A DNA stretch of 64,000 nt from a bacterium (GTDB taxonomy: Bacteria > Myxococcota_A > UBA9160 > SZUA-336). Shown here piece after piece: positions 6,834 to 57,470 of this stretch. The notes under the pieces were generated by a model. That model did no database searches and was not told where the DNA came from. It saw only the letters and a program-made list of their open reading frames with translations. The DNA lies in the NCBI GenBank assembly GCA_041498295.1, contig JBGQIB010000001.1, positions 2,428 through 66,427 of the forward strand, read 5' to 3'. Both the position numbers and the translations under genes were made by a program. The first letter of the stretch is position 1, and each line of letters opens with the position of its first letter.

Positions 6834-6848
6834 GGTGATCCTCTCTTT

Positions 6849-14273: not shown

Positions 14274-14343
14274 AAGGCGATCCGCGGCTACAAGGAAAAC
14301 GTCAGTGAGTGCGGCCGGAGAGTCATGGCTGTCTCTGATCGGG

Positions 14344-14430
14344 GTGACTCGCCGCCCGTGCGGGGGCGGGCGCCTCCGCACGGGCTGCATTTCTCGGATC
14401 CTGTCGCGCCGCGCGGGTGACGCCAATGCC
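14344..14430. repeat. Local repeat copy B (direct, internally deleted relative to copy A).
   Basis: gtgactcgccgcccgtgcgggggcgggcgcctccgcacgggctgcatttctcggatcctgtcgcgccgcgcgggtgacgcc. Confidence 0.55.
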
Positions 14431-14504
14431 AGCAAGATGCTCTTACACTAAAAGATAGTGGAAGAACGACTCACTGCTCGAATCAGCGAAAGGCCGGCGC
14501 TTCG

Positions 14505-14550
14505 GCGGGACGCGGACGAGTGGGTTTCGCAGCGAGTCCGCGAGCGAGAA
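14505..14550. repeat. Local repeat copy C (inverted), matching the segment deleted from copy B.
   Basis: Its reverse complement contains cccttctcgctcgcggactcgctgcgaaacccactcgtc, identical to 13451-13489. Confidence 0.55.
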
Positions 14551-14606
14551 GGGACCCACGAGTCGGCGCCCGCCGAAGCGCCGGCCGCTGCGATCCGATC
14601 CGTGCG

Positions 14607-41817: not shown

Positions 41818-41880
41818 GCCGCGCTACCCAGCCTTCGCTCGGCTTCGCCTCGCTGCGCGCGCCGCGCCCGCCGCTTGCCT
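41818..41880 (+). repeat. Stop-codon-abutting repeat family, partial copy (3' box CGCTCGGCTTCGCCTCGCTGCGCGCGCC) immediately after the ubiB-like stop.
   Basis: Matches the 3' half of the copies at 57389-57470 and, inverted, the 5' box of the other copies. Confidence 0.5.
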
Positions 41881-41939
41881 CTAGCCTCACCTCCTCCGGT
41901 TCGTGACTACGGACGCTGCGTCGATGCCCCGCAAGGCGA

Positions 41940-42024
41940 GCGCGGAGCGCGAAGGCGCGCAGTGAGCCGCAGGCGAACGAAGAGCGGGTGGGCGGGCTTC
42001 GCCCGCCCGGGTCCCGCTAAGGGC
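41940..42024 (-). repeat. Stop-codon-abutting repeat, full copy at the argG stop (CTTAGCGGG... on the transcribed strand) with hairpin GGGCGGGC-TTC-GCCCGCCC.
   Basis: Conserved boxes GCGCAGTGAGCCGCAGGCGAACGAAGAGCGGGTGG and CCCGCTAAG. The TAG of CTAAG is the argG stop codon. Confidence 0.6.
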
Positions 42025-43210
42025 GGAGCTTGAGGCGGAGTGCGTTCAGCTTGATGAAGCCCGTGGCGTCGCGCTGGTCGTAGCTGCCACCGGCCTCGAA
42101 CGTCGCGATGTCCTCGCGGTACAGCGAGTGCGGCGAGCGGCGGCCGCGCACCATGACGGCGCCCTTGAACAGGCGCATGCGCACCTCGCCGCTCACGTGC
42201 TCCTGACTCTTGTCGATCGCCGCGCGCAGAAATTCCATCTCGGGCGAGAACCAGAAGCCGGCATAGATGAGTTGCGCGATGCGGGGAATCAGTCGGTCGC
42301 GCTCGAGCATGACTTCGCGGTCGAGCGTGATCGACTCGAGCGCGCGGTGCGCGCCGTGCAGCACGGTTCCACCCGGTGTCTCGTAGACGCCGCGCGACTT
42401 CATGCCCACGGCGCGATCCTCGACGAGATCCACGCGACCGACGCCGTGCTCCGCCGCGAGCTCGTTCAAGCGAGTCAGTAACTCGACCGGTCCGAGCGGC
42501 CGCCCGTCGACCTTCACCGGCACCCCGCGCTCGAACTCGATCTGGAGCTCGCTCGGCTGGTCCGGCGCGTCGGCGACGGCGTTCGTCCACTCGAACATCT
42601 CCTCGTCGGGCGCGCGCCACGGATCCTCGAGAATCCCGCCCTCGTAACTGATGTGGTAGATGTTCCGATCCAGCGAGTAAGGCTTGCGCAGGGTCGCGTC
42701 GACGGGAATGTCGTGCTTGCGCGCGTAGGCCATGAGCTCGGTGCGGCCGCCCATGTCCCAGGTGCGCCAGGGCGCGATGATCTGGAGATCCGGCGCGAGC
42801 GCGTGGAAGGCGAGCTCGAAGCGCATCTGGTCGTTGCCCTTGCCCGTGCAGCCGTGCGCGACCGCGTCCGCGCCGACTTGGCGCGCGATCCGCACCTGCT
42901 CCTTCGCGAGCACCGGCCGCGCGAGAGACGTGCCGAGCAGATAGCTGCCCTCGTAGACCGCGTTCGCGCTGATCGCCGGGAACACGAAGTCGCGCACGAA
43001 CTCCTCGCGCAGGTCCGAGATCACACAGTCGACGGCGCCGGTCGCGAGCGCCTTCTTGTGCACGGCGTCGAGGTCCTCGCCCTGCCCCACGTTGCCGACG
43101 TAGCAAACCACTTCCGCCGCGTACGTCTCGATCAGCCAGCGCAGGATCACCGAAGTGTCGAGCCCGCCGCTGTACGCCAACACGATCCGCTTGATGTCGC
43201 CCTTGCTCAT
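42017..43210 (-). CDS. argG: Argininosuccinate synthase.
   Basis: MSKGDIKRIVLAYSGGLDTS..., typical ArgG throughout. Upstream ORF extension lies within a repeat element and is rejected. Confidence 0.95.
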   Translation of the reverse strand: MSKGDIKRIVLAYSGGLDTSVILRWLIETYAAEVVCYVGNVGQGEDLDAVHKKALATGAVDCVISDLREEFVRDFVFPAISANAVYEGSYLLGTSLARPVLAKEQVRIARQVGADAVAHGCTGKGNDQMRFELAFHALAPDLQIIAPWRTWDMGGRTELMAYARKHDIPVDATLRKPYSLDRNIYHISYEGGILEDPWRAPDEEMFEWTNAVADAPDQPSELQIEFERGVPVKVDGRPLGPVELLTRLNELAAEHGVGRVDLVEDRAVGMKSRGVYETPGGTVLHGAHRALESITLDREVMLERDRLIPRIAQLIYAGFWFSPEMEFLRAAIDKSQEHVSGEVRMRLFKGAVMVRGRRSPHSLYREDIATFEAGGSYDQRDATGFIKLNALRLKLRP

Positions 43211-43254
43211 GAACGGCATCATAGCGAGCACGCCGTTCCGAGGTAGGGAGCAAG

Positions 43255-43372
43255 CCGCGGGCGCGCGGCGCGCAGCGAGCCGCAGGCGAGCGAAGAGCGG
43301 GTGGCGCGGCTTAGCCCGACACCGGCGCGCGGGCCGGTGTCCCGCGGGAGCGGGCCCCGCTAAGTCACTCGA
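43255..43372 (-). repeat. Stop-codon-abutting repeat, full copy starting at the TGA of the DUF4388 gene. Hairpin GACACCGGC-N-GCCGGTGTC.
   Basis: GCGCAGCGAGCCGCAGGCGAGCGAAGAGCGGGTGG...CCCCGCTAAG-TCA(stop). Confidence 0.6.
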
Positions 43373-44114
43373 CGACTCCCTCGCGGACGAGCTTGGCAAT
43401 GATCTCGAGCGTGCGGACGCGGTCGGCGGTGGAGACGGAGAGGAGGTCGGCGATCGACATGCGGCCGTCGATCTGGGAGAGCATGAAGCCTTCGTCCGGC
43501 TGCAGGCGCAGCTTCATGACCTGCTGAGTCGTGACCTTCAGGCGCAGCACGTGGCCCTGGTCGCCGAGCTCCTTGGCCCACGCCTGCGCTCGCTCGGTGC
43601 GCACGAGCTGCAGGTAGCCCTGCACGTCGAGGCGGTCGGGCTCGTCCTTCGCGAGCTTTCGCAGCTCCGTGAAGGCGTCGTCGTAGCGCCCTTCCTTGTA
43701 CGCCTGGAGCGCGGACTGAATCTGCGTGTCCGGGTCGTCGTCCGCGTCGAACTCGATCACCGGGCCGCTCTTCGGTGTGTCGTCCTCGTCGGTGACCGGG
43801 CGCGCGCCCCTACCGGCGGGCTTCGCGGACGCGGCCTTCGGCGCGGGCTTCGGGACAGAGCCCTTCGGCGTCGAGCTCTTGGCGGGCGCGCTCGGCGGCT
43901 TCGCGGCCTTCGGCGGCGCGCCCTTCTTCTTGCTCGCGTTCCCGCCCTGCTCCTCGTAAGCGGTCTCGAGATAGTCGTGCACGGCCTGGTTCTCGGGGTC
44001 GAGCGCGCGCGCCTGCTCCCAGCACGAGATGGCGGCCTCGAGGTCGCCCAACCCGTAGTGATTCAGGCCGCGCTTGAGCAGCCGAGTGACTTCAGCGTGT
44101 CTCGCGTCGTCCAC
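43365..44114 (-). CDS. TPR-like N-terminus plus DUF4388-like C-terminal domain protein with a Lys/Pro/Ala-rich linker.
   Basis: C-terminal GHVLRLKVTTQQVMKLRLQPDEGFMLSQIDGRMSIADLL resembles the DUF4388 (PatA-N-like) domain common in Myxococcota. Directly downstream of the Hsp70 gene (4-nt gap). Confidence 0.55.
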   Translation of the reverse strand: MDDARHAEVTRLLKRGLNHYGLGDLEAAISCWEQARALDPENQAVHDYLETAYEEQGGNASKKKGAPPKAAKPPSAPAKSSTPKGSVPKPAPKAASAKPAGRGARPVTDEDDTPKSGPVIEFDADDDPDTQIQSALQAYKEGRYDDAFTELRKLAKDEPDRLDVQGYLQLVRTERAQAWAKELGDQGHVLRLKVTTQQVMKLRLQPDEGFMLSQIDGRMSIADLLSVSTADRVRTLEIIAKLVREGVVE

Positions 44115-44117
44115 GAC

Positions 44118-45695
44118 TCAGCCTTTGACGGCGACCTCGTCGCCCTGCTGGTACATATTCGCGAGGCGCTCGATTTCTTCCGGCGTCAGCGTGCCGCGCG
44201 GATTCACCTGGATCGAATGAGCGCGGCCGGTCGCGAGATCGCGCGCCGAGACCGACACGATGCCGTTCGCATCGATGTCGAACGTGACCTCGATCTCCGG
44301 CTGGCCCTTCGGTCCGGGCGGAATGCCGGCGAGCACGAATTCGCCGAGCAGATCGTTGTCGTCCGCGCGCTCGCTCTCGCCCTGCAGCACGCGGATCTTC
44401 ACCGCGGTCTGATTGTCACGCGTGGTGGTGAAGATCTCCTGGCGCGATGTCGGCACCGTGGTGTTGCGCTCGATGAGCTTCGCGAAGTGACCGCCGAAGG
44501 TCGCGATGCCGAGCGACAGCGGAGTCACATCGACGAGGAGCGGGCCCTCCTTCTCCTCGCTGAGCATCGCCGCCTGGATCGCGGCGCCGACCGCGACGAC
44601 TTCGTCGGGATTCACGCCCTTGTGCGGGGTCTTCCCGAAGAACGACGCGACCGTCTTCTGCACCATCGGCATGCGTGTTTGACCGCCGACCAGCAGCACC
44701 TGGTCGATCTGCTTCACGGTGAGCTTCGCGTCGTCGAGAGCGCGCTGCACGATCGGCTGAGTGCGGAGGACGAGCTCGCCGACGAGCTCCTCGAGTTTCT
44801 CGCGCGTGAGCAGCACGCTCATGTGCAGCGCGTTCTCTTCCGCGTCCGCCGCGATGAACGGCAGATTGATCTCGGTCGAGCCGAGCTGCGAGAGATCGCA
44901 CTTCGCCTTTTCCGAGGCATCCTTCAGCCGCTGCAGCGCCATCGTGTCGCCGCGCAGCGAGAGCTTTTCCTTCTCCTGGAAGGTCGCGAGCAGGTGATCG
45001 ACGATCTTGCGGTCGAAGTCCTCGCCGCCGAGCTGTGTGTCGCCGGAGGTCGCGAGCACCTCGATCACGCCCTTGCCCATTTGCAGGATCGAGATGTCGA
45101 ACGTGCCGCCGCCGAGGTCGTAGACCGCGATGATCTCGGTCTTGTCACGGCCGAAGCCGTAGGCGAGCGCCGCCGCCGTCGGCTCGTTGATGATGCGCAA
45201 GAGCTCGAGGCCCGCGATGCGCCCGGCGTCGCGCGTCGTCTGGCGCTGCGCGTCGTTGAAGTAGGCGGGCACTGTGATGACGGCCTGCTGCACGGTGTCT
45301 CCGAGATACTCCTCGGCGACGCGCTTCATCTCGCGCAGCACGATGCCCGAGATCTCGGGGATCGTGTACACGCGCCCCGCGACGCGCACGCGCACGTCGT
45401 TGTTCGGGCCCTGGACCAGCTCGTACGGCAGCAGCTCCTTGAACTTGGAGACGTCCTGCGAATCGAAGCTGCGTCCGATCAAGCGCTTCGCCGCATAGAC
45501 CGTGTTCTTCGCGTTCGTGACGGCCTGGCGCTTGGCGAGGTGACCCACCAGGCGCTTGCCCTCCTCCGTGACGGCGAAGATCGACGGCGTCGTCTTGTAC
45601 CCGCCCGTGTTGGGAATCACGACGGGCTGGCCATCCTCGAGGATGGCCACGCAGGAGTTCGTGGTTCCCAGATCGATTCCGATTACTCGACTCAT
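44118..45695 (-). CDS. Hsp70-family chaperone lacking the C-terminal helical lid (525 aa, HscC-like).
   Basis: [25 protein letters not shown] motifs. Substrate-binding beta domain present. Ends ~110 aa short of canonical DnaK. Confidence 0.9.
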
Positions 45696-45716
45696 TTCGT
45701 TCCCTTCGCGGCGCAG

Positions 45717-45732
45717 GACACTCTAGAGTGTC
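45717..45732. promoter_or_regulatory. Perfect 16-bp palindrome GACACTCTAGAGTGTC overlapping the J-protein stop codon, 25 nt upstream of the Hsp70 start.
   Basis: Seen directly. The self-complementary sequence spans the TAG stop. Confidence 0.4.
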
Positions 45733-46760
45733 TGGAGCGCCTGGCGGATCTCCTTGTCCATCGGATCGAGCTCCCACGCGCGCTGCAGGTGCTTGCGCGC
45801 CTTTTGTGAGTCGCCGGCCTTGCGGTAGACTTCGCCGGCGAGCTTACGGAACGGAATGCTCTCTTCGTCCAGCGCGACGGCGCGCTCCGCGTAGAGCGCC
45901 GCCTTCTCGAGACCGCCCTCGAGCCCGGCGAGTAACTCGGCGAGCTTTTGCGCGAGCTCCGCGTCGGTCGGAGAGAGCTGCGCGGCCTCCTCGAGCAGCT
46001 CGGCGGCGCCCGCGCGGTCGCCGGAGAGCAGCATCTCGGCCTTGCGGCGCACCGCGGCCGCGCGTTCCGCGTTCGCGCGCGGGAGGATCTCGGCGAGCTC
46101 GTCGTGGTAGCGCTTTTCGCGCGGGTCGAACGCGAGCGCGAGCTCGACGAGCTGCGCGGCTCGCGCCCAGTCACCGTTCTGTTTCTGCAGCATCGCGGCG
46201 TCGAATTGCTTGCTCGCGCGCGCGCGGCTCTGTTCGAGCTGGCGCTGCAGCGAGATGAGCATCAGGCCGGGTGACTTGAGACCGAGTCGGCCGCGCAGCG
46301 ACGCACCGCGGCCGGAGGTGGGCGCGCGTGACAAGGGCACGGCAGGCGGCGGGATCGTGACCGGACGTGACTCGGTGGTCGTCGGCGAGAGCGAGCGATC
46401 GTACGCGCCGCGCAGCTTCGGATCGCGGAGCACGTCGTGCGCGGCGACGATGCGCTTGTACACCTCGTTCAACAGGTCCGCGTACGGACCGAGCTCCTTC
46501 TTGAAGTAGCGATCGGGGTGGTAGGTCTTCGAGCGCTGGAAGAAGGCGTCGCGAATGTCGGCGGACTCGGCTTCGCGCGGGACGCCGAGCACGTCGTAGT
46601 ACGTGAGCGTGGCGAGTGAGCGCGCGAACTCGCGGACATCGCGCTGAAACGCTTCGGGCAAATCCACGCGAGCGCCCGCGTTCGCTGCCTCGTTCGAGGC
46701 CGCTTCGCCGTCGGTGCTCGAACTCATCCCGCCTCCACGCCGATGCGCAATTCGCCCCAC
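45723..46760 (-). CDS. J-domain (DnaJ-like) co-chaperone with C-terminal TPR repeats.
   Basis: YYDVLGVPREAESADIRDAFFQRSKTYHPDR (HPD motif). TPR-like helices in the C-terminal 200 aa. Start may be the internal ATG (MSSSTDG). Confidence 0.8.
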   Translation of the reverse strand: MGRIAHRRGGGMSSSTDGEAASNEAANAGARVDLPEAFQRDVREFARSLATLTYYDVLGVPREAESADIRDAFFQRSKTYHPDRYFKKELGPYADLLNEVYKRIVAAHDVLRDPKLRGAYDRSLSPTTTESRPVTIPPPAVPLSRAPTSGRGASLRGRLGLKSPGLMLISLQRQLEQSRARASKQFDAAMLQKQNGDWARAAQLVELALAFDPREKRYHDELAEILPRANAERAAAVRRKAEMLLSGDRAGAAELLEEAAQLSPTDAELAQKLAELLAGLEGGLEKAALYAERAVALDEESIPFRKLAGEVYRKAGDSQKARKHLQRAWELDPMDKEIRQALQTL

Positions 46761-46836
46761 AAGCTATCGGGGGGCCTCGGCGGGAAATTGAGGCGCGCGG
46801 ACGCGAAGCGGCGCGGCTGTCGCGCGTGTCGCGCGG

Positions 46837-47781
46837 CTAGCGAGCGATCAAAAGCTCGAGGATCGCCTTCTGCGCGTGCAGGCGATTTTCAGCTTGATCG
46901 AACACGATCGCGCGCGCGGATTCGAACACGTCCGCGGTGATCTCTTCGCCGCGGTGCGCGGGCAGGCAGTGCAGGATGCGCGCCCCGGGCGCGAGCGCGA
47001 CGAGCTCCGCGTTCAGCTGATACGGGCGAAAGATGCGCCGCCGCGCCTCGGCTTCGCTCTCCTGTCCCATGCTGGCCCACACGTCCGTGTAGAGGAAGGC
47101 GGCGCCCTTCACCGCCTCGCGCGGATCGGCGACGAAGCGGATCTGCGCGCCCGTCTGCGCCGCGCGCTCGAGCGCCGTGCGCACGAGCGCTGGGTCGGGC
47201 GCGTAGCCCGGCGGGGTGCTCACCACGAGCGACATGCCGAGGCACGCGGCGAGATTGATCAGCGAGTGACACATGTTGTTGCCGTCGCCGATGTAGCTGA
47301 CTTGGTCTCGGCGCAGGTCACCGTGCTCGAGGATCGTGAGCGCGTCCGCCATGGCCTGACACGGGTGCAGCCAGTCGGTGAGCGCGTTGATCACCGGTAC
47401 ACTCGCGTGTGTCGCCAGGGTCTGTACGACGTCGTGGCCATACGTGCGCGCGACGATCCCGTGGCACCAGCGCGAGAGGTTGCGGGCGACGTCCTCGGGC
47501 GGTTCGCGCTCGCCGATCTGCACCTGCCCGGGCGGGAGATACACCGGAAACCCGCCCAGCTCGACGACGCCTACTTCGAAGGTCACGAACGTGCGCAGAC
47601 TCGGCTTCGCGAAGTAGAGCAGAATCGAGCAGCCGTCGAGCGAGCGCACCGGCACGCGCCGGCGGCGCAGGTCCTTCAGCTCGAGCGCGCGCGCGAGAAT
47701 CTCCTCGATCGCGTCGCGGGGCCACTCCGCGATCGACAGGAAGTCCTTGGGGACGCGGCGCTCAGGCCTTTGAGCGGACAA
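46837..47781 (-). CDS. argF: Ornithine carbamoyltransferase (start possibly the GTG at ~47754 to avoid a 20-nt overlap with argB).
   Basis: SLRTF carbamoyl-phosphate motif, HPCQ, HCLPA motifs. Confidence 0.85.
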   Translation of the reverse strand: MSAQRPERRVPKDFLSIAEWPRDAIEEILARALELKDLRRRRVPVRSLDGCSILLYFAKPSLRTFVTFEVGVVELGGFPVYLPPGQVQIGEREPPEDVARNLSRWCHGIVARTYGHDVVQTLATHASVPVINALTDWLHPCQAMADALTILEHGDLRRDQVSYIGDGNNMCHSLINLAACLGMSLVVSTPPGYAPDPALVRTALERAAQTGAQIRFVADPREAVKGAAFLYTDVWASMGQESEAEARRRIFRPYQLNAELVALAPGARILHCLPAHRGEEITADVFESARAIVFDQAENRLHAQKAILELLIAR

Positions 47782-48628
47782 GTTTCGTTCCCACGCCGCC
47801 GTCGGTGAAGATCTCGAGCAAGAGCGCGTGCGGCACGCGCCCGTCGATGATGTGCGCCGCGGTGACTCCGCGCTCCATCGCGCGCACGGCGCACTCGAGC
47901 TTCGGAATCATGCCGCCCTTCACCGTACCGTCCGCGATCGAGCGCCGCACCTCCGCCTCGGTCATCTGGTGGATGAGCTGCCTCGCGTCGTCGAGTACGC
48001 CCTCGACGTCGGTGAGCAGGATCAGCTTCTCGGCCGCGAGCGCCTCGGCGATCGCGCCCGCGGCGGTATCGGCGTTGACGTTGTAGGTGACTCCCTGCGC
48101 GTCCACGCCGACGGGCGCGACGACGGGAATGAAGCCGTCCTTGGTGAGTGTCTTGATCAGCGAGACGTCGACACGCTCTGGTGTACCCACGAGGCCCAGG
48201 TCGCGGCCGGCCGGGCCGAATAGGCGCTTCACGCGCAGGAAGCCGCCGGCGTCCTTGCCGGTGAGGCCGATCGCCTGGCCGCCGGCGGCGCCGATGAGTG
48301 ACACGATCTCGGCGTTGATCTGACCGCCGAGCACCATCTCGACGACCTCCATCGTCTCCTGGTCGGTGACTCGAACACCGTCGACGAACTCGGACTTCTT
48401 GCCGAGTCGCGCGAGCAGCTGGCCGATCTGGGGACCGCCGCCGTGCACGATCACCGGGCGCAGCCCGATGAAGCGCAGCAAGGTCACGTCGGTCGCGAAC
48501 GAGGCTTTGAGCGCGTCGTTCTCCATCGCGGCGCCGCCGTACTTGATCACCACCGTCTTGTCGAAGAACGCGCGGATGTAGGGCAGCGCCTCGACCAGCG
48601 TGTTTGCCTTGCGAATCAGCTCTTCCAT
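47762..48628 (-). CDS. argB: Acetylglutamate kinase.
   Basis: VIKYGGAAM, VHGGGPQI motifs. Confidence 0.9.
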   Translation of the reverse strand: MEELIRKANTLVEALPYIRAFFDKTVVIKYGGAAMENDALKASFATDVTLLRFIGLRPVIVHGGGPQIGQLLARLGKKSEFVDGVRVTDQETMEVVEMVLGGQINAEIVSLIGAAGGQAIGLTGKDAGGFLRVKRLFGPAGRDLGLVGTPERVDVSLIKTLTKDGFIPVVAPVGVDAQGVTYNVNADTAAGAIAEALAAEKLILLTDVEGVLDDARQLIHQMTEAEVRRSIADGTVKGGMIPKLECAVRAMERGVTAAHIIDGRVPHALLLEIFTDGGVGTKLVRSKA

Positions 48629-48634
48629 CGCCGC

Positions 48635-49957
48635 CTACAAGATGAAGCGCGAGAGCTCTCGGTCTCCCGCGATGTCCGAGAGTCGCTCGCGCACGCGCGC
48701 GGCGTCGAAGACTTCGCTCGAGCCTCCGCGGTCGGGCGCTTCGAAGAGCGCGTCGTCGAGGAGTCTCTCGAGCACGGTATGCAAGCGCCGCGCGCCTATG
48801 TTCTCGGTCGAGCGATTCACTTCCGCCGCGATGCGCGCGATCTCGCGAATCGCGTCCGGCTTGAACTCGAGCCGCACGTTCTCGGTCGCGAGCAGCGCTT
48901 GATACTGCTTCACGAGCGCATTGTGCGGCTCCTCGAGGATCCGCACAAATGCCGCCTCGTCCAGATCCTCGAGCTCGACGCGGATCGGGAAGCGCCCCTG
49001 CAACTCCGGGATCAGGTCGGAGGGCCGCGAGACGTGAAACGCCCCGGCCGCAATGAACAGAATGTGGTCGGTGCGCACCGTGCCGTGCTTCGTCTGCACG
49101 CTCGTACCCTCGACGATCGGCAGTAAGTCGCGCTGCACGCCCTCGCGAGAGACGTCGGCGCCGTGTGTCTCGCGGCGCGCGATCTTGTCGATCTCGTCGA
49201 TGAACACGATGCCGGTCTGCTCGGTGCGCTGCAGCGCGCGCTCGCGCACGGCGTCTTGGTCGATCAAGCGGCCCGCCTCCTCGTCGCGCAGGAAGTCGCG
49301 CGCCTGCGCGACCTTCACGCGCCGCGAGCGCGTCCGCTTGGGCATCAGGTTGCCCATCAGATCCTTCAGTGAGACGCCCATTTCCTCGATGCCCTGCGGC
49401 GAGAAGATCTCGAGCGTCGGACCCGAGCGCTCGGGCATGTCGATCTCGACCTCGCGCTCCTCGAGCTCGCCGGAGCGCAGCTTCGCGCGCATGCGTTCGC
49501 GGGTCGAATCCGATCCCTCGCTCGTGCCCTTCATCTCCGGGGTTCGCGGGTACAGCGCGTCGAGCAGCCGCTCCTCGGCGATCCGCTCCGCGGAGGCTTG
49601 CACCTTCGCGAGCTCCTCGTCGCGCACCAGCTTGATGCCGACCTCCATCAGGTCGCGCACGATCGAGTCGACGTCGCGCCCTACGTAGCCGACCTCGGTG
49701 AACTTCGAGGCTTCGACCTTCACGAACGGCGCGGCCGCGAGCTTCGCGAGCCGGCGCGCGATCTCGGTCTTTCCGACGCCGGTCGGGCCGATCATCAGGA
49801 TGTTCTTCGGGTGAATCTCGTCCTTGAGATCACCCGACACATTTTGGCGTCGCCAGCGATTGCGCAGCGCGATGGCCACCGCGCGCTTCGCGGCGTGCTG
49901 GCCGACGATGAAGCGATCGAGCTCCGAGACCACCTCGCGCGGAGTGAAGGTTCTCAA
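48635..49957 (-). CDS. hslU: ATP-dependent protease ATPase subunit HslU. TTG start overlapping the hslV stop (TTGA).
   Basis: [35 protein letters not shown] Walker A. The long upstream ORF extension overlaps hslV in another frame and is rejected. Confidence 0.9.
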
Positions 49958-50496
49958 AGCGCGAGCTCCTCGATGCTGATTTGGTCGTTTGTGTACAAGC
50001 AGATCTCCGCGGCGATGCGCAAGCTGCGCTCCGCGATCTCGCGCGCCGAGAGCTCCGTCGCGTCGAGCAGCGCGCGCGCGGCGGCGAGCGCATACGCGCC
50101 CCCGGAGCCGATTGCGGCCACTCCGCCATCGGGCTCGATCACGTCGCCGTTGCCGGAGATGACGAGCATGTCCTGCACGTCGGCGACGATCAGCAGCGCC
50201 TCGAGGCGGCGCATCGAGCGATCGGTGCGCCAGTCCTTCGCCAGCTCGACGGCGGCGCGGCGCAGGATGCCGCCGCGCTCCTCGAGCTTCGCCTCGAAGC
50301 GCTCCGCGAGCGCGAACGCGTCGGCGGTCGAGCCCGCGAAGCCCGCGAGCACCTTGCCGCCGCGCAGCCGCTGGATCTTCTTCGCGGTCCGCTTCATCAC
50401 CATCTCGCCGAACGTGACTTGGCCGTCGCCGGCGATCACCACGCTGGCGCCTCGCTTCACGGCGATCACGGTCGTGGCGTGAAACTGCGCCGTCAT
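49954..50496 (-). CDS. hslV: ATP-dependent protease subunit HslV.
   Basis: TTVIAV N-terminal threonine protease signature, GSGGAYA. Confidence 0.9.
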
Positions 50497-50581
50497 GGCG
50501 GGTTAGCGGCGGGCAAAGCTCGCCTGCCCGCACGGCAGTGCGGCGCACCGCCTTCGGTGCTCGTGGCCAGGGCTCGTGTCA

Positions 50582-51484
50582 CTAGTCTTCCTTCGCGCGC
50601 GGGTGGGCGGCGCGGTAGACGCGCGCCAGTCGCTCGGCGGAGACGTGGGTATAGCGCTGAGTGGTGGAGAGCCGCTCGTGGCCCAGGAGCTCCTGGATCG
50701 CGCGCAGGTCGACGTCCGCGTCGAGCAGATGCGTCGCATAAGAGTGTCGCAGGGTGTGGGGGCTCGCGGGCCGCGCGATCCCAGCCACGAGCATGCGCCG
50801 GCGCAGGATCACGCGCACGCCGCGGTCCGACAGCGCCCCGCCGCGCGCGTTCGTGAACATCGGCTCTGCGAGCAGGCCTTCGGCGGGGCGCAGTTTCAGC
50901 CAGGCGTCGAGCGCGCCGCGCGCTTCGGAGGGCACCGGCACGACACGCTCCTTGTTGCCTTTGCCCGAGACGCGCAGCTCGCGGCGGTCGTGGTCCCAGT
51001 CGCGCACGCGCAGCGCCGCGAGCTCGCCCACGCGCAGCCCCGTTCCGTAAAGCAGCTCGAAGAGCGCCTTGTCGCGCAGCGCGAGCGAGGGCGCGCGGGT
51101 CGGGTCCTCGCTCTCGACCAGCTGCTCGCAGTCCTCGGCCGAGAGTGGCGAGGGCAGACGGCGTTCGCGCTTCGGCCCGGGCAGCCCCTCGGTCGGGTCC
51201 GCGCCGCGCGCGCCGATCTTCACGCGGAAGCGGAAGAACGCGCGCAGGGCCGCGAGCCGACGGTTGCGCGTCGACGCCTTGTGCACGCGGTGAAAGCCGG
51301 CGAGGTAGGTGCGCACCGCCAGTGACTCGATGCGATCGAGTCCTCCGGCGCGCGCGCACTCCGGGCTCTCGGCGAGCTGGCGCGCTTCGCCCAGATACGC
51401 GCGCGAGGTGTGCGGCGAGAGACCGCGCTCGGCGACGAGGTGGCGTTCGAAGGCCGTGATGGCGCGCGCGTCGGCCGGAGTCAC
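50582..51484 (-). CDS. xerC: Tyrosine recombinase XerC/XerD family. GTG start overlapping the trmFO stop.
   Basis: R...HxxR...Y catalytic residues (LRHSYATHLL, TQRYTHV). 300 aa counted from VTPADARAI. Confidence 0.85.
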   Translation of the reverse strand: MTPADARAITAFERHLVAERGLSPHTSRAYLGEARQLAESPECARAGGLDRIESLAVRTYLAGFHRVHKASTRNRRLAALRAFFRFRVKIGARGADPTEGLPGPKRERRLPSPLSAEDCEQLVESEDPTRAPSLALRDKALFELLYGTGLRVGELAALRVRDWDHDRRELRVSGKGNKERVVPVPSEARGALDAWLKLRPAEGLLAEPMFTNARGGALSDRGVRVILRRRMLVAGIARPASPHTLRHSYATHLLDADVDLRAIQELLGHERLSTTQRYTHVSAERLARVYRAAHPRAKED

Positions 51485-52821
51485 GCGCGCTCCGCGGGCG
51501 GCGCGCCGACCGCGCGCAGCCACGGCCCGAGATCCTCGTGCGCGCGCGCGGCGAGCCGCGCGTGTCGGTCGCGCCGCGGCCCACGCGCCTGGCGTCCCTC
51601 GAACGGCGGGAAGAGACCGAAGTTCACGTTCATCGGCTGGAAGTGGCGCGGGTCCGCGTTGCGCAGATGCGCCAGCAGCGCGCCCAGCGCGGTCGTCGCC
51701 GGCGGCAGGGGCGCCGAGTCGCCCGCGGCCTTCGCTGCCACGAACAGGCCGGCGAGCAGGCCGAGCGCCGCGGATTCGACGTAGCCCTCGACCCCGGCCA
51801 TCTGGCCGGCGAAGTGGAGGCCGGGACGCGCTCGGTGCTGCAGGCGCTCGTCGAGCAGCTCGGGCGCGCGGATGAACGTGTTGCGATGCACCGATCCGAA
51901 GCGCGCGAAGACCGCCTCCTCGAGACCCGGAAGCGTCCGGAAGATCCGCTTCTGCTCGCCGATCCGCAGCTTCGTCTGAAACCCGACCAGGTTGTAGAGC
52001 GAGCCCGCCTTGTCCTCCTGGCGCAGCTGGACGACCGCGTAGGCCGGGGCGCCCCCGCGAGGGTCCTCGAGGCCGACGGGCTTCATCGGTCCGAACGCGA
52101 GTGTCTCGGCGCCGCGCTCCGCCATCACCTCGATCGGCAGACAACCCTCGAAGTAGACCGCCTTTTCGAACGCGTGCAGCGGCACCTTCTCGGCCGCGAC
52201 CAGCTCGGCGACGAACGCGTGGTACGCGTCGCGCGAGAGCGGCGAGTTGAGATAATCGCCCTCGCCGTCGTCTCTGCTCTGCCAGCGCGAGGCTCGAAAC
52301 AGCCGCTCGTGCGCGAGGCTGTCGGCGTAGACGACCGGCGCGATCGAGTCATAGAAGTAGAGTGAGTCACCGCACAGCTCGCGCACGCGCTCGGCCAGCG
52401 CGTCGGAAGTGAGTGGCCCGGTCGCGAGGATGACCAGGCCCTCGGGCAGCTCGCGCACTTCGCGGCGCACGAGCTCGATGTTCGGCTCCGCCTCGATGCG
52501 GACGCCGATCTCGCGCGCGAATGCGCCGCGATCGACGGCGAGCGCCGAGCCGGCGGGCACGCGATTCGCGTCTGCGGCGGAGAGGACGAGCGAGCCCGCG
52601 CGGCGCAGCTCTTCGTGCAGCAGACCGATCGCGTTCTCCGGCGTGTCGGAGCGCAGGCTGTTCGAGCAGACCAGCTCCGCGAGCTCGTCCGTGTTGTGCG
52701 CGGGAGAGCGCCGCTCGGGGCGCATCTCGAAGAGCTGCACGGAGACCCCTCGCCGGGCGAGCTGCCAAGCTGCCTCGCAGCCTGCGAGCCCGCCGCCGAT
52801 AACCTGCACGCGCATCGCCAT
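51481..52821 (-). CDS. trmFO: Methylenetetrahydrofolate--tRNA-(uracil-5-)-methyltransferase TrmFO (Gid). Start MAMRVQV; 52815 and 52836 are alternatives.
   Basis: VIGGGLAGCEAAWQLARRG FAD-binding motif. Remainder typical of Gid. Confidence 0.85.
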   Translation of the reverse strand: MAMRVQVIGGGLAGCEAAWQLARRGVSVQLFEMRPERRSPAHNTDELAELVCSNSLRSDTPENAIGLLHEELRRAGSLVLSAADANRVPAGSALAVDRGAFAREIGVRIEAEPNIELVRREVRELPEGLVILATGPLTSDALAERVRELCGDSLYFYDSIAPVVYADSLAHERLFRASRWQSRDDGEGDYLNSPLSRDAYHAFVAELVAAEKVPLHAFEKAVYFEGCLPIEVMAERGAETLAFGPMKPVGLEDPRGGAPAYAVVQLRQEDKAGSLYNLVGFQTKLRIGEQKRIFRTLPGLEEAVFARFGSVHRNTFIRAPELLDERLQHRARPGLHFAGQMAGVEGYVESAALGLLAGLFVAAKAAGDSAPLPPATTALGALLAHLRNADPRHFQPMNVNFGLFPPFEGRQARGPRRDRHARLAARAHEDLGPWLRAVGAPPAERA

Positions 52822-52844
52822 TCCGGCACGGAACATAGCCGGGC

Positions 52845-52960
52845 GCCGCAGCAAGCGAAGCGCGCAGCGAGGCGCAGCCGAGCGAAGAGGGGGTGGCGGC
52901 GGCCGGACATCGGCCCGCCGGCCGATGTCCCGCGGGGGCGCCGGGGCCACTAAGACCTCA
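52845..52960 (-). repeat. Stop-codon-abutting repeat, full copy at the dprA stop. Hairpin GGACATCGGC-N-GCCGATGTCC.
   Basis: GCGCAGCGAGGCGCAGCCGAGCGAAGAGGGGGTGG...GGGGCCACTAAG with the TAG of CTAAG serving as the dprA stop. Confidence 0.6.
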
Positions 52961-54047
52961 GGCTGAGCCGCGAGCCCTCGCGGCGGAGCGCTCCGTCGAG
53001 CTCGAGCTCGAGCAACACGCGCGCCAGCTCGGCCGGGCTCCGCCCGAGCGCGCGGGTGAGCGTGTCGAGATCGCACGGCCCGTCGGCCAGATGCTCGAGC
53101 ACCGCGCGCGCCGCCGGCGTCGCATCGCTCGCTTGCACGGGCACGCGAGGCTTCGCGGCGAGCGGGCCGAGCACGGCCTCGCGCAGGTCGTCCGCATCGA
53201 GGATCGGAATCGCGCCGTCACGCAACAGGCGATTGGAGCCGCGACACAGATCGGCGTCGATCGGCCCGGGCACGACCGCGACGTCGCGTCCCTGCTCGAG
53301 TGCGTGGCGTGCGCTCCACAGGGTGCCGCTCTTTTCGCGCGCCTCGACGATCAGGGTCAGGCGCGCGAGTCCGCTGATCAGCCGATTGCGCTCCGGGAAG
53401 TGGTGAGGGTGGGCGTCGGCGCCGGGATTGCGCTCCGACAGCCATGCGCCGCCGCCCGCGAGAATCCGCTCCGCGAGCCGCCGCTGACCCGCGGGAGTCA
53501 CTCGATCGAGGCCCGAAGCGAGCACCGCCACCGTGCAGCCCGCCCCCGCGAGCGCGCCCTCGTGCGCCGCTGCATCGATGCCATAGGCGAGACCCGAGAC
53601 GATCGCGACGCCGGAGCGCGATAGCTCCCCGGCGAAGGCGTGCGCGGTTGCAACGCCCCTCCCGGTCGGACGCCGCGAGCCGACGATCGCGATCGCCGGT
53701 CCGGTCGGGAGCTCGCCGCGCAGCCACAGCAAGAGCGGCGGATCGGGGATCTCGCGCAGCGCGGCCGGGAACTCGAGTGACTCGGGCGCGACCGCGCGCA
53801 CGCCGGACGCCGCTCCGAGCGCGAGCGCGCGTTCGCCCGCGCTCGCGTCGACGGCGCGCGCAACCGCCGACGCGAGCTTGCGCGGAACGTGCGCGGCAAG
53901 CCGCGCCGAGCTGGCGCCGAGCAGCGCGCTCGCCGATCCGTACAGCGCAATGAGTCGGCGCGCGTGTGCGCGCGAGAGACCGGGAACGGCGCCGAGTGCG
54001 GCGCGGGCAACGAGCTCGTCGTTCACGGAAAAACTCCGCGGGACCAC
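52950..54047 (-). CDS. dprA: DNA-processing protein DprA (Smf).
   Basis: Rossmann-like DprA core (IAIVGSRRPTGRG, VVSGLAYGIDAAAH), C-terminal winged-helix region. Confidence 0.85.
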   Translation of the reverse strand: MVPRSFSVNDELVARAALGAVPGLSRAHARRLIALYGSASALLGASSARLAAHVPRKLASAVARAVDASAGERALALGAASGVRAVAPESLEFPAALREIPDPPLLLWLRGELPTGPAIAIVGSRRPTGRGVATAHAFAGELSRSGVAIVSGLAYGIDAAAHEGALAGAGCTVAVLASGLDRVTPAGQRRLAERILAGGGAWLSERNPGADAHPHHFPERNRLISGLARLTLIVEAREKSGTLWSARHALEQGRDVAVVPGPIDADLCRGSNRLLRDGAIPILDADDLREAVLGPLAAKPRVPVQASDATPAARAVLEHLADGPCDLDTLTRALGRSPAELARVLLELELDGALRREGSRLSLRS

Positions 54048-54077
54048 GCGGGGCGAGCGCGGCTAGAGTAGCCGGCC

Positions 54078-54776
54078 ATGCCCAACTCGCCCGCGCGCTC
54101 GCCGAGCTCACTCGCGCTGCCCTACGTCGTCCCGTACGTCGTCTACGTCGTGCTCGGCTCGCTCGTGGACGTGCGCACTCACGCCGAGCTGATCTACGCG
54201 GCGCGCCTGGTGGCGGTGGGCGGGGCGCTGGCGTTCTTCAGGCGCGACTACTTGCCGCTGCGCGGGCCGCGCTCGCCGTGGGCGTCGCTCGCGCTCGGTG
54301 CGGCTGCGGGTCTCTTGGGCGCAGCCCTATGGGTCGCGCTGCGCGCGCGCTTCACCGCGGGTGCTGCGCCCGCGTGGTCCGACTCGGCCTGGGCCGCGCG
54401 CGCGCTCGGCTCGGCGCTCCTCCCGCCGTTCGTCGAGGAGCTGCTCTTCCGCGGCTGGGTGTTGCGCACGGTGCTGCTCTTCGAGCGCGCGCGACGCGCG
54501 GGGAGCGCCGCGCCGTTCGCGGACGCGCTCGACCGTTCGGCGCTGGCCGACGTCGCGCCCGGCGCCTGGAGCGCACTCTCGGTCGCGGTCTCGAGCGCCC
54601 TGTTCGCGGCGGGCCACCTGCCCGGTGAGTGGCCGGCCGCCTGCGTCTACGGCGTCCTGATGTGCACGCTCTGGATCGCGCGCGGCGACCTCGTATCATG
54701 CATTTCCGCTCATGCGGTCACGAACGCGGCGCTCGCGCTGTTCGCGCGTGCGAACGGATCATGGGGAAGTTGGTAG
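54078..54776 (+). CDS. CPBP-family (CAAX protease/Abi) intramembrane metalloprotease.
   Basis: EELLFRG motif 1, FAAGH motif 2, HAVTN motif 3, multiple TM segments. Confidence 0.75.
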   Translation: MPNSPARSPSSLALPYVVPYVVYVVLGSLVDVRTHAELIYAARLVAVGGALAFFRRDYLPLRGPRSPWASLALGAAAGLLGAALWVALRARFTAGAAPAWSDSAWAARALGSALLPPFVEELLFRGWVLRTVLLFERARRAGSAAPFADALDRSALADVAPGAWSALSVAVSSALFAAGHLPGEWPAACVYGVLMCTLWIARGDLVSCISAHAVTNAALALFARANGSWGSW

Positions 54777-54778
54777 CG

Positions 54779-57388
54779 ATGTCCGAGCTCCCGCAAAGCT
54801 ACGAGCCCGACAAAGCCGAGGGCCGCTGGGCCGAGCGCTGGGAACGCGAGGGCGTATACCGCTGGGATCCGGCGCGCCGCCGCGACGAGACGTTCGTCAT
54901 CGACACACCGCCGCCCACGGTGTCCGGGTCGCTGCACATCGGCCACGTCTTCAGCTACACGCACGCGGATCTGATCGCGCGCTTCCAGCGCATGCGCGGC
55001 AAGAACGTCGCGTTCCCGATCGGCTGGGACGACAACGGACTGCCGACGGAGCGGCGCGTGCAGATCGTGCTCGGACTGCGCCCGAATACGAAACTCGCGT
55101 ACGACCCGCACTGGCAGCCGCGCCGCGACAAAAAGGCCGACGAACCGCTCGAAGACGTCTCGCCGCAGAACTTCATCGAGGCCTGCAAGCTCGTGATGAG
55201 CGAGGACGAGGCAGTATTCGAGGCGCTCTGGCGGCGGCTCGGTCTCTCGTACGACTGGACGCAGCTCTACCGCACGATCGCGGATCACCCGCGGCGCATC
55301 GCGCAGCTCTCATTTCTCGACCTCTACGCGAAGCGCGAGGCGTACTCGAAATTCGCCCCCACGATGTGGGACGTCGACGACCAGACCGCGGTCGCGCAGG
55401 CGGAGACGGAGGACCGCGAGCAGCCCGGCGCGTATCACGATCTACGCTTTTCGGTGTTGGGCGGCGGCGAGCTCACGATCTCGACGACGCGGCCCGAGCT
55501 GCTCGGCGCCTGCGTCGCGGTGGTCGCGCATCCCGACGACGAGCGCTACCGCGCGCTCTTCGGCAAGACGGCGCGCACACCCCTCTTCCACGCGCCGGTG
55601 CCGATCGTGGCCAGTGCGCACGCCGATCCCGAGAAGGGCACGGGCATCCTGATGGTGTGCACGTTCGGCGATCAGGCCGACGTGGAGTTCTGGCGCGCCC
55701 AGAGCCTGCCGCTGCGCCAGCTGATCGGCCCCGACGGGCGCATGCGCCGCGTGGTCTTCGGCGAAGCGCCCTTCGCCAGCGAGGATGCGGCGCGCGCGCG
55801 CGCCGCCTGGGCCGAGCTCGAGGGAAAAACGGTCAAGCAGGCGCGCGCGAAGATCGTCGAGCTGCTGCGCGCCGACGGCGCGCTCGTCGGCGAGCCGCGC
55901 GCGATCACGCATCCGGTGAAGTTCTACGAGCGCGGCTCGCGCCCGCTCGAGTTCTTGCCCACGCGCCAGTGGTTCGTGCGCATCCTGGTACACAGAGATG
56001 CGTTGCTCGAGCAGGGCCGGAAGATCGAGTGGCACCCGGCGCACATGCGCGCGCGCTACGAGAACTGGGTGCAAGGCTTGAATCAGGACTGGTGCGTGAG
56101 TCGCCAGCGCTTCTCGGGCGTGCCCTTCCCGGTCTGGTACCGGCTCGACGCACAGGGCCGGCCCGACCATGAGCGCCCGCTGCTCGCGCGCGCCGAGGAG
56201 CTTCCCGTCGACCCGCGCCTGCAGCCGCCGACGGGCTACGGCGAGGCGCAGCGCGGCCAGCCGGGCGGATTCATCGGCGATGCGGACGTCATGGACACCT
56301 GGGCGACGTCGTCGATGTCGCCGCAGATCATGAGTCACTGGACGCTCGACCCCGCGCGTCACGCACAGCTGTTCCCGATGGACATGCGCCCGCAGGCGCA
56401 CGAGATCATCCGCACCTGGCTCTTCTACACGGTCGTGAAGGCGTATCTGCACGAGCGCGAGATCCCGTGGAAACACGCTGTGATCAGCGGCTGGATCCTC
56501 GACCCGGACCGCAAGAAGATGAGCAAGTCGAAGGGCAACGTGACTACGCCCGCGCACTTGCTCGACCAGCACTCGGCCGACGCGGTGCGCTACTGGGCGG
56601 CGCGCGCGCGGCTGGGCGTCGACACGACCTTCGACGAGCAGGTGATGAAGCTCGGCAAGCGCCTCGCGACGAAGCTCGTGAACGCCGGCCGCTTCGCGAT
56701 CCTGCAGCTCGAGCGCGCCGGCGCCACGCCGGAGACACATCCGGCGAGCGCGATCTCGCACCCGCTCGACGTCGACTTCGCGGCGCGCCTGCGCGAACTG
56801 GTCGCGCGCGCGACCGCGTCGTTCGAGGAGTTCGAGTACGCCGCCGCGCTGCAGGCCACGGAAGAGGCATTCTGGGACTTCTGCGACAACTATCTCGAGA
56901 TCGTGAAGGTGCGCGCGTACGCGGAGTCACCCTCGCCCGAGCAGCGCTCGGCGCTCGCGACGCTGCAGCTCGCGCTGCGCGTCTTCCTGCGGCTGTTCGC
57001 GCCTGCGCTGCCGTTCGTGAGCGACGAGATCTGGTCGTGGCGCTTCGCGGCGAGCGCGGGCGGCCGTTCGATTCACTCGGGTCCGTGGCCGAGCGTCGAG
57101 GAGTTCGCCGGTATTTCGCTCGAGCGCGCGGGCCGCGCGTATGCGGCCGCGTGCGAGATATCGACGCGGATTCGCGGCGCGAAGACGAGCGCGAAGAAGA
57201 GCCTGCGCTGGCCGGTCGCGCGCCTCGAGGTGCGCGGCGCGGAGCCCGACCTCGCCGCTCTGCGCACGGTGCTACCCGACGTCCTCGCCGCCGGCGTGGT
57301 CGACACCGCTGGGTGTCGCCTCTCCGCGGGTGCGCCCAGCGACGGAGCGATCTTCGCGACCGAGGTAGAGCTGGCTACGGCGTCTTAG
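54779..57388 (+). CDS. valS: Valine--tRNA ligase (compact type lacking the C-terminal coiled coil).
   Basis: PPPTVSGSLHIGH (HIGH), KMSKSKGNV (KMSKS), editing-domain sequences. ATG at 54779 just after the CPBP stop. Confidence 0.9.
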   Translation: MSELPQSYEPDKAEGRWAERWEREGVYRWDPARRRDETFVIDTPPPTVSGSLHIGHVFSYTHADLIARFQRMRGKNVAFPIGWDDNGLPTERRVQIVLGLRPNTKLAYDPHWQPRRDKKADEPLEDVSPQNFIEACKLVMSEDEAVFEALWRRLGLSYDWTQLYRTIADHPRRIAQLSFLDLYAKREAYSKFAPTMWDVDDQTAVAQAETEDREQPGAYHDLRFSVLGGGELTISTTRPELLGACVAVVAHPDDERYRALFGKTARTPLFHAPVPIVASAHADPEKGTGILMVCTFGDQADVEFWRAQSLPLRQLIGPDGRMRRVVFGEAPFASEDAARARAAWAELEGKTVKQARAKIVELLRADGALVGEPRAITHPVKFYERGSRPLEFLPTRQWFVRILVHRDALLEQGRKIEWHPAHMRARYENWVQGLNQDWCVSRQRFSGVPFPVWYRLDAQGRPDHERPLLARAEELPVDPRLQPPTGYGEAQRGQPGGFIGDADVMDTWATSSMSPQIMSHWTLDPARHAQLFPMDMRPQAHEIIRTWLFYTVVKAYLHEREIPWKHAVISGWILDPDRKKMSKSKGNVTTPAHLLDQHSADAVRYWAARARLGVDTTFDEQVMKLGKRLATKLVNAGRFAILQLERAGATPETHPASAISHPLDVDFAARLRELVARATASFEEFEYAAALQATEEAFWDFCDNYLEIVKVRAYAESPSPEQRSALATLQLALRVFLRLFAPALPFVSDEIWSWRFAASAGGRSIHSGPWPSVEEFAGISLERAGRAYAAACEISTRIRGAKTSAKKSLRWPVARLEVRGAEPDLAALRTVLPDVLAAGVVDTAGCRLSAGAPSDGAIFATEVELATAS

Positions 57389-57470
57389 CGGGTTACGCGC
57401 GAGGGCGGCCGCGCGCTCCCGCCTACGCTCGGCTTCGCCTCCCTGCGCGCCTTCGGCTTGCGAGTCCTAG
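57389..57470 (+). repeat. Stop-codon-abutting repeat copy starting at the valS TAG (TCTTAGCGGG...).
   Basis: 5' CTTAGCGGG, variable middle, 3' CGCTCGGCTTCGCCTCCCTGCGCGCC. Confidence 0.55.

Follow-up and report, generated by a model that had tools for sequence, protein, structure and literature searches.

Few non-coding features are as common in bacterial genomes as small hairpin repeats such as the repetitive extragenic palindromes (REPs). A tetranucleotide at the hairpin foot defines the REPs (PMC6006769), and most work on such repeats concerns Gamma- and Alphaproteobacteria and Cyanobacteria (PMC3733652). Here we describe a family of repeats with five copies in a 64-kb stretch of contig JBGQIB010000001.1, assembly GCA_041498295.1 (positions 2,428 to 66,427; the whole stretch is called the window). 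The DNA comes from an uncultured soil clade of Myxococcota, which carries its own version of such hairpin repeats. A first-pass annotation of the window had pointed to five copies that begin at stop codons and hold a covarying hairpin between conserved boxes, and had offered a terminator, an mRNA stabiliser or a REP-like element as explanations. The REP-like description proved the best: the repeats are a lineage-specific, REP-like family of mobile elements, a known type of element, and no new principle is shown.

The REPs, bacterial interspersed mosaic elements (BIMEs) and REP doublets forming hairpins (REPINs) of Enterobacteria and Pseudomonas are mobilised by REP-associated tyrosine transposases (RAYTs). 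Like them, the present repeats are short, non-coding, intergenic and multi-copy, are built of imperfect hairpins that have a conserved tetranucleotide at their base (PMC6006769), occur as singletons, tandem mosaics and inverted doublets, favour spacers at gene 3′ ends and vary in presence among relatives. The tag, however, is GT[AG]G placed 0-2 nt 5′ of the hairpin foot in REPs and YTAG or GCAA here, two of the three hairpins are hypervariable even in orthologous copies, and the 28-nt core, a mismatched hairpin of 3+2 bp, is found in at least 45 species and not in one. None of the family was linked to a RAYT gene in the 8-kb blocks read around the elements. The GTAG-tagged REPs (PMC3733652) resemble the family in that an element end overlaps the stop codon of the flanking open reading frame (ORF) and some ORFs read into the element, as at copy A below. 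They differ in that here either end can abut a stop and the hosts are Myxococcota, a phylum not mentioned in the main text of that paper.

The subterminal hairpins of IS200/IS605 elements and their transposase-less derivatives are likewise asymmetric, lack terminal inverted repeats, form imperfect hairpins in single-stranded DNA and insert beside a defined tetra- or pentanucleotide; if one end of the element resembled this target, the head-to-tail arrays of the present family would be explained. However, they make no target duplication and keep a fixed orientation, whereas duplications of 2-3, ~20 and 25 nt are seen here and either end may lie at a stop. The left flank here is usually xTAG or CTTG, and no TnpA/TnpB gene was found in the 8-kb blocks. 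The attC sites of integrons are recognised as folded single strands, have conserved boxes around a variable palindromic centre and follow the stop of the preceding ORF in fixed orientation. The present elements differ from attC in lying at housekeeping genes in conserved synteny and not in cassettes, in having no integron integrase or attI, in lacking the R/L box consensus GTTRRRY and in occurring in both orientations.

Structure of the element and its copies in the window

The exact 25-nt core, CGYTCGSCTKCGSCTCNCTGCGCGC, matched five times in the window against 0.01 times in shuffled sequence, and the longer box of the first-pass annotation matched three times with none expected. A repeat finder picked up the same family independently. 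With a covariance model (R1) the five copies scored 46-52 bits and the next hit 14 bits, thus there are exactly five copies in the window, all within 41.8-57.5 kb (Table 1). All are intergenic or overlap only the final codons of a gene, and each begins at the stop codon of its upstream gene. As first described, the TAG codons of argG, dprA and valS lie within CTTAG and a TGA directly precedes CTTAGCGGGG, but the gene ending in this TGA (43365-44114) encodes a TPR protein, Pfam giving no DUF4388 domain as had been supposed. The five places given were also right, although copy A starts at about 41797-41800 and not at 41818, and the elements extend further 3′ through a hairpin (H3), the sequence TTGC and a tail.

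The core was scanned against a collection of species-representative genomes, and the family counts given here rest on the matches listed and on the 8-kb blocks around the elements. The core was present in at least 114 stretches from at least 45 assemblies, which are species-level Myxococcota metagenome-assembled genomes (MAGs) of uncultured soil bacteria. Among the matches listed, 147 exact-core copies from 114 blocks and 45 MAGs were aligned.

The element is ~45-120 nt long, non-coding and rich in hairpins. Read on the strand that carries CTTAG, it consists of an optional hairpin (H1), the trinucleotide CTY, the 25-nt core (hairpin H2), H3, the invariant TTGC and a short tail. H1 is a variable compound hairpin with an outer stem GCGGGN/NCCCGC, a CCC bulge and a hypervariable inner stem; in the window lineage the outer stem is AGCGGG/CCCGCT. 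Nested in the H1 of copies C and D is a distinct perfect palindrome, GACAYCGGCC-NGCG-GGCCGRTGTC, further copies of which are confined to the window species and its nearest relative. One of the central hairpins of the first-pass annotation is this module, lying within another hairpin. The variable pairs GACACCGGC/GCCGGTGTC, GGACATCGGC/GCCGATGTCC and GGGCGGGC/GCCCGCCC were all present and are predicted to fold, the sequence changing while the pairing stays.

Ahead of the core, C at -3 and T at -2 were found in 142 of 145 copies. The core itself follows the pattern G-Y / tandem T-C mismatches / G-S-C, a T-N-C loop, G-S-C / R-C, that is, 2 bp followed by a 2x2 T-C/T-C mismatch and then by 3 bp that close a 3-nt loop. 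The search pattern leaves four positions free, and covariation was counted over the 147 aligned copies. The pair 7-13 was C-G in 84, G-C in 62 and unpaired in one, while the pair 3-17 was C-G in 127, T-A in 17 and unpaired in three, and every combination of these two pairs with the loop base was seen. In a non-redundant alignment 98.9% of the cells were paired compared to 86.8% in column shuffles, none of 500 shuffles reaching the observed value, and all slid registers failed. Given that the paired positions covary and that the slid registers fail, the core is a small hairpin, whose structure has been maintained in at least 45 species. The 5′ box was thus correctly described as conserved, but it is the most strongly covarying hairpin and not an unstructured flank. 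Copies missed by the pattern and found by the model alone added a third compensatory pair, C-G to T-A (L002), the loops TAC and TCC and, in two copies, a longer hairpin in place of the loop.

The G-rich complementary strand of H2 (GCGAGCCGCAGGCGAGC) has tandem G-A in a C-GA-G context in place of the T-C mismatches, and its loop is GCA or GAA. Sheared tandem G-A pairs and the d(GCGAAGC) mini-hairpin are known as stable structures, and by analogy we infer that the G-rich strand would be the more stable one. H3 is a hypervariable and mostly perfect stem whose 5′ arm begins in the last GC of the core. A perfect stem adjoined TTGC in 123 of the 147 copies, with 45 different arm sequences. Its triloops (n = 77) were TNC, equivalent to GNA on the G-rich strand, in at least 28 and up to 61 cases. 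The loops of H1 (GAA, AGA, ACA and TGA) are, unlike those of H3, purine-rich on the CTTAG strand.

Folding energies of the window copies were no better than those of shuffles on either strand (z from -2.0 to +0.9). Shuffled sequences of 75-80% G+C fold equally well, thus the case for structure rests solely on covariation. A comparison of G-T with A-C mismatches in the H3 stems did not reveal the strand, as the 54 distinct stems held only nine mismatches, with two T-G against two A-C. Rfam gave no match at the gathering score in the window, none overlapping the elements at E values up to 1 and none in L031.

Insertion sites in close relatives and position across the family

The sites of copies A to D were compared with those in contigs found through their ArgG homologues, in which ArgG is 94-95% identical and the gene order is the same. 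The window itself belongs to a soil MAG population, with near-identical sequences (>99.6% identity) in GCA_041494925.1 and in JGI metagenomes. In the window, copies B and A occupy the 199-nt spacer between argG and the ABC1-kinase gene, copy C lies between the TPR gene and argG and copy D between dprA and trmFO. In L121 and L125/L126 the A/B site was empty, site C held a variant without the core and site D was empty (61-nt spacer in L126). In L123 both the A/B site and site C were empty (48-nt spacer at the latter) and site D was not covered. L122 and L127/L128 had a core-less variant at site B and nothing at A, one element at site C and two tandem elements at site D. A scan of the relatives with R1 agreed with this pattern. 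At the precise positions of copies A to D there are thus relatives that lack an element, and this comparison of orthologous sites, a check proposed in the first-pass annotation, shows that the elements are insertions which have been gained or lost between close relatives.

The insertions are precise at stop codons, even where two convergent genes overlap. At the empty A/B site (L121/L125/L126 and L123) argG either adjoins or overlaps the kinase gene, the junction reading ...CCG TAG (CGG) TCACGAAC..., whereas copies A and B separate them in the window. Copy B lies at the exact ancestral argG stop, with TAG on both sides, and its 21-nt tail has TAG as its final letters. Copy A encodes a new C-terminal tail of five residues for the kinase (...RFVT-GSRRG-stop). 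The 5′ hairpin of this copy reads CTGGGT-CCC-GGCGCGGC-TGA-GCCGCGCT-ACCCAG. The 25-nt duplication that flanks copy A, GCCTCACCTCCTCCGGTTCGTGACT, matched twice in the window with none expected and was also found in the same-species contigs L115-L118. The gene calls for L121 (4169-4206) and L123 (4151-4188) have argG and the ABC1-kinase gene converging with a 38-nt overlap.

Elements at the same site can differ considerably. At site C of L122/L127/L128 the flanks are as in the window but the H1 stem, H2 and H3 all differ, H2 being GGC-TAC-GCC against GCC-TGC-GGC in the window. Since orthologous copies next to 95% identical ArgG carry wholly different stems, the variable hairpins probably arise not only by stepwise compensatory substitution. 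At site D of L127/L128 the tandem elements are separated by an imperfect ~20-nt copy of the dprA 3′ end. Thus gain, loss and rapid remodelling are all observed at fixed sites. The core-less variants, at L121 2909-3000 (site C) and L122 4195-4290 (site B), stand at sites of full window copies and have H1 followed by ...CTCT-GCGCTCGCC-TTGC or ...CGCGCTTCGCGCTCGCCTAAGC, which suggests internal deletion or modular assembly within the family. Between strains 99.9% identical over 21.6 kb (the window and L115), 10 of the 23 differing positions fell inside copy D (52835-52954), as four substitutions and one 6-nt deletion in a hairpin. Copies A to C showed no such cluster, so that in copy D it may be a gene-conversion patch.

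A target-site duplication is not a general feature of the family, as repeats of at least 6 nt directly after TTGC were no commoner than at control offsets, and most of the long flanking repeats were partial extra modules. TA followed TTGC directly in 11 of 131 copies (8%) against a dinucleotide frequency of 0.9%, the commonest continuation being GG.

Flanking coding strands and frames were called across the family by codon-position G+C. Convergent spacers held 27 copies and divergent spacers nine. In the window and its closest relatives the CTTAG strand is always the sense strand of the upstream gene and starts at its stop, which agrees with the orientation first described. However, in co-directional spacers across the family this strand was sense in 19 cases and antisense in 37, and therefore the orientation seen in the window is not a family rule. 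Where a gene on the same strand had its stop ahead of the core (n = 54), the stop lay 6-13 nt before the core in 14 copies (e.g. TGACTT before CGTTCG), and most of the others had a 5′ module starting at the stop (TAGCGGG, TAGCCGGG). At the opposite end about ten copies fused the TAG of a converging gene to TTGC (TTGCTAG). Both element ends can thus abut a stop, as TAG before CGGG... and as ...TTGC before TAG. The tag ahead of the hairpin was mostly CTAG or TTAG and in a few copies GTAG, the window copies having CTTAG before H1.

Some copies lie on the other strand 5-15 nt upstream of start codons (L029, L028, L021 and L094), the complement of the core providing GGAG ahead of the start codon in L029, L028 and L094. 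Copies directly 3′ of tRNA genes were found in L016 (...GGGCGCCGCCTCCAATTCAATTTTTCTT before CGCTCG), L055, L066 and L077, thus the genes that the family follows are not only those for proteins. Singletons and direct arrays account for most copies, with head-to-tail arrays in L099, L092 and L082, and inverted doublets such as A/B in the window and those in L031 also occur. The tail-to-tail arrangement claimed for convergent spacers applies to A/B, but the valS/HpcH spacer holds copy E alone. In L031 (2985-3275 and 6350-6625) two inverted core elements surround a palindromic centre of ~120 nt, the whole being a near-perfect palindrome of ~290 nt that occurs twice in 8 kb.

An influence of the elements on the choice of stop codon, also proposed at first, was not detectable given that TAG accounted for 44% of the stops adjoining elements, against 40% of the other stops of these MAGs (p = 0.45). 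Among the coding-like ORFs of L001-L114 and the window, from MAGs of 70% G+C, the stops were TAG in ~40%, TGA in 56% and TAA in 4%. A share of ~40% TAG seems high.

The MAGs carrying the core are labelled Myxococcota, Deltaproteobacteria, Proteobacteria or, in 'binchicken' bins, Spirochaetales, and the identity of their ArgG to that of the window goes down to ~77% (e.g. contig CBDFGR010000002.1). The element was present in many bins named 'uncultured Spirochaetales bacterium (binchicken_...)', among them L003, L005, L007, L011 and L020 (CAZUYC, CAYPSI, CAYTJA, CAZCTH, CAZZFT and similar). The DNA of L094, from one bin with this label, is 78% identical to the Hsp70-argB region of the window. 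The Spirochaetales label is probably wrong for these bins.

Mobility and competing explanations

The above results are best accounted for, in our judgement with reasonable likelihood, if the five repeats are small non-coding mobile elements, rich in hairpins and of the REP/BIME/REPIN kind, which are probably moved by a Y1-type enzyme. This account fits the evidence better than an RNA signal, a miniature inverted-repeat transposable element (MITE) or a protein-binding site. A trans-acting protein, encoded by one gene per genome, would read the core and the TTGC/GCAA at the foot of H3, presumably in folded single-stranded DNA, after which the element would be copied or moved. The most likely enzyme would be an HUH tyrosine (Y1) transposase of the RAYT or IS200-IS605 type. 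Only insertions outside coding sequence would survive, those inside genes being removed by selection. Because the genomes are compact and of 70% G+C, the few bases at stop codons would be left as sites, and because both element ends begin with G after TA a TAG stop would be rebuilt in either orientation. At overlapping genes such as argG and the kinase gene, insertion would need duplication of the shared segment or a new C-terminus built from the element. Effects on host mRNA, such as protection by a 3′ hairpin against exonucleases or the stalling of ribosomes by a hairpin less than 15 nt from the stop, would be side effects and not the reason for the family's existence, though an effect at the RNA level may have been exapted at some genes.

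Several observations weigh against this account. Six-frame translations of the window and of 767 kb of flanking sequence contained no HUH-type motif, although a gene outside the 8-kb blocks would be missed, and no transposase of any kind lay next to the elements in these blocks. Clustering of 761 coding-like ORFs near the elements gave no recurrent non-metabolic neighbour, the recurrent ones being acyl-CoA dehydrogenases, short-chain dehydrogenases/reductases (SDRs), enoyl-CoA hydratases, thiolases and CoA-transferases, and the ORFs between inverted pairs in L029, L040 and L031 included no transposase. The canonical REP tag is replaced, two of the three hairpins are hypervariable where classical REP stems are conserved within a genome, and the core is shared by many species where REPs are typically species-specific. 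Insertion of the IS200/IS605 type leaves no duplication, and the junctions here are inconsistent, with TA(G)...TA(G) at some, the 25-nt duplication at copy A and the imperfect ~20-nt duplication in L127. Strict membership of the REPs fails on the GT[AG]G tag, and the link between a RAYT gene and the repeats is one that we infer. The hypervariable H1 and H3, the widely shared core and the mixed junctions set the family apart. A plasmid database search with copy C gave no match, and nothing relevant was found in the literature on REPs, RAYTs and REPINs in Myxococcota.

The family could also be a separate class of single-strand-DNA mobile element and not a REP moved by a RAYT, which we regard as quite unlikely. 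The mark of such a class would be the 28-nt core hairpin, unchanged throughout a Myxococcota clade and with tandem G-A mismatches and a GNA triloop on its G-rich strand, and the element would home to stop codons. Its insertion would leave target duplications that vary in length (2-25 nt), and new perfect palindromes (H1 and H3) would form whenever it is copied. On these terms the enzyme would be of an undescribed type, perhaps one that forms hairpins or switches template.

The elements might instead be functional 3′-end RNA signals, namely terminators without a U-tract, mRNA stabilisers or attenuators of translation, which are selected in place and whose covariation reflects selection on RNA. 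The CTTAG strand in the window and closest relatives, the excess of convergent over divergent spacers and the copies 3′ of tRNA genes (L016, L055 and L066) are all in favour of this, and in E. coli, REPs within 15 nt of a stop reportedly cause ribosomes to stall and reduce translation (cited in PMC12306157). However, the ends of the same housekeeping genes may carry an element or lack it in genomes with 94-95% identical ArgG, the opposite orientation is the commoner one in co-directional spacers and some copies stand just upstream of start codons. Furthermore, the loops of a type associated with stability (GNA triloops and tandem G-A) are on the strand antisense to the mRNA in the window copies, the folding energies are the same as those of shuffles and Rfam gave no match. 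We consider it unlikely that the elements are such RNA signals. A terminator role, as first suggested, was not supported as a general property. An intrinsic (Rho-independent) terminator has a T-run after its G+C-rich hairpin, but the window copies have no T-tract, only TTGC and G/C-rich sequence after H3, no terminator-like site overlaps any of the five, and the orientation is mixed across the family.

A MITE of a TA-targeting DDE transposon, of the IS630 or Tc1-mariner style and moving by cut-and-paste with duplication of TA, is improbable to about the same degree as the RNA signal. Such an element would explain the preference for stop codons, as these are the places where a genome of 70% G+C has TA outside its coding sequence. 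Copies B and E and the second L127 element have TA at either side, with a single TA in the empty sites, TA directly after TTGC is in excess of its dinucleotide frequency, all five window copies have a TA 3-21 nt after TTGC, and the 290-nt unit of L031 has inverted element copies at its ends in the manner of terminal inverted repeats. However, single elements have no terminal inverted repeats beyond TAGC/GCTA (4 nt), 92% of the copies lack TA directly after TTGC, copy A has no TA at its left junction but the 25-nt duplication, there are head-to-tail arrays that lack an intervening TA (L099) and no DDE transposase was seen adjoining any copy in the 8-kb blocks. Finally, the core could be a duplex site to which a dimeric protein of the host binds (nucleoid-associated, regulatory or linked to replication), its dyad symmetry having nothing to do with a hairpin. 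The covarying positions are indeed symmetric about the core centre and the core is invariant over at least 45 species amid varying surroundings. Yet the central pair is C-G in 84 and G-C in 62 copies, which a stem would tolerate but a protein reading the bases would not, two positions per arm are never complementary, the loop has been swapped for a longer hairpin in two copies with the flanking arms kept, and close relatives differ in whether their housekeeping genes have the site, which is both gained and lost. We thus consider a protein-binding site very unlikely.

The mobile REP-like family described here offers a clean system with unusual conservation and unusual junctions, the core being searchable with one 25-nt pattern across at least 45 species and filled and empty sites being clear between near-identical genomes. 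If the mobilising enzyme were found, the way in which hairpin elements select stop codons could be tested in this system. The repeats will break short-read assemblies and can mimic regulatory RNA motifs in covariation screens, and annotated gene ends are shifted because ORFs read into them.

Feature coordinates and other repeats in the window

Genes in the window were called by codon-position G+C and assigned to families with Pfam. The positions of the five elements, their parts and their neighbouring genes are collected in Table 1.

Table 1. Repeat elements and neighbouring genes in the window, in order of position.
Feature	Position	Strand	Details
Duplication, left copy	41775..41799	+	perfect 25-nt direct duplication flanking copy A; 3′ end of the ABC1-kinase coding sequence
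ABC1 kinase gene	ends 41817	+	TGA 41815-41817
Copy A, full element	41797..41884	+	exact core 41836-41860; R1 51.3 bits; H1 predicted to fold
Copy A, H1	41798-41831	+	TGA of the ABC1 gene in the loop
Copy A, inner parts		+	CTT + H2 core 41833-41860; H3 41859-41874; TTGC 41875-41878; tail CTCTAG
Duplication, right copy	41884..41908	+	25-nt duplication flanking copy A
Copy B	41907..42022	-	exact core 41955-41979; R1 51.6 bits; argG TAG inside CTTAG
Copy B, parts		-	H1 41983-42016; H2 core 41955-41979; H3; TTGC 41931-41934 (GCAA on +)
argG	42017-43222	-	TAG 42017-42019 in CTTAG
Copy C	43244..43364	-	exact core 43268-43292; R1 52.3 bits; between the TPR gene stop and the argG start
Copy C, parts		-	nested palindromic module GACACCGGC...GCCGGTGTC in H1 43318-43341; H2 core 43268-43292; TTGC 43250-43253
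TPR protein gene	43365-44114	-	Pfam TPR families; TGA 43365-43367 directly before CTTAGCGGGG
GidA/TrmFO-family gene	next to copy D	-	
Copy D	52835..52954	-	exact core 52860-52884; R1 50.5 bits; between the dprA stop and the trmFO/GidA-family gene start
Copy D, parts		-	nested module GGACATCGGCC...GGCCGATGTCC 52905-52930; H2 core 52860-52884; TTGC 52851-52854
dprA	52950-54047	-	TAG 52950-52952 in CTTAG
valS	54629-57388	+	TAG 57386-57388 in CTTAG
Copy E	57384..57470	+	exact core 57426-57450; R1 45.9 bits; after valS, convergent with the HpcH-family gene
Copy E, parts		+	H2 core 57426-57450; TTGC 57458-57461; tail ends CCTAG
HpcH-family lyase gene	stop 57472-57474	-	

A second repeat system was found at 13404-14553. 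It has inverted arms of 50 nt (13448-13497 and 14504-14553) that are 94% complementary, and a direct repeat, GGTGACTCGCCGCCCGTGCGGCGGCCGGTGCCTCC, at 13404-13442 and 14343-14381 which contains a hairpin. An ORF on the minus strand (13516-14010), with a PEP-CTERM-like C-terminus and no Pfam match, is enclosed. The inverted repeat 13448/14504 was considered as a master element and rejected, since the enclosed ORF is PEP-CTERM-like and is not a transposase. One arm contains CTCGCTCGCGGACTCGCTGCG, which is faintly like the core (R1 9 bits), and a 17-nt piece of the arm was absent from all fetched loci. The largest direct repeats of the window, with a period of 99 nt, are at 4161-6848 on the minus strand and are coding repeats of an 895-residue ankyrin-repeat protein (Ank_2, E = 2e-169).

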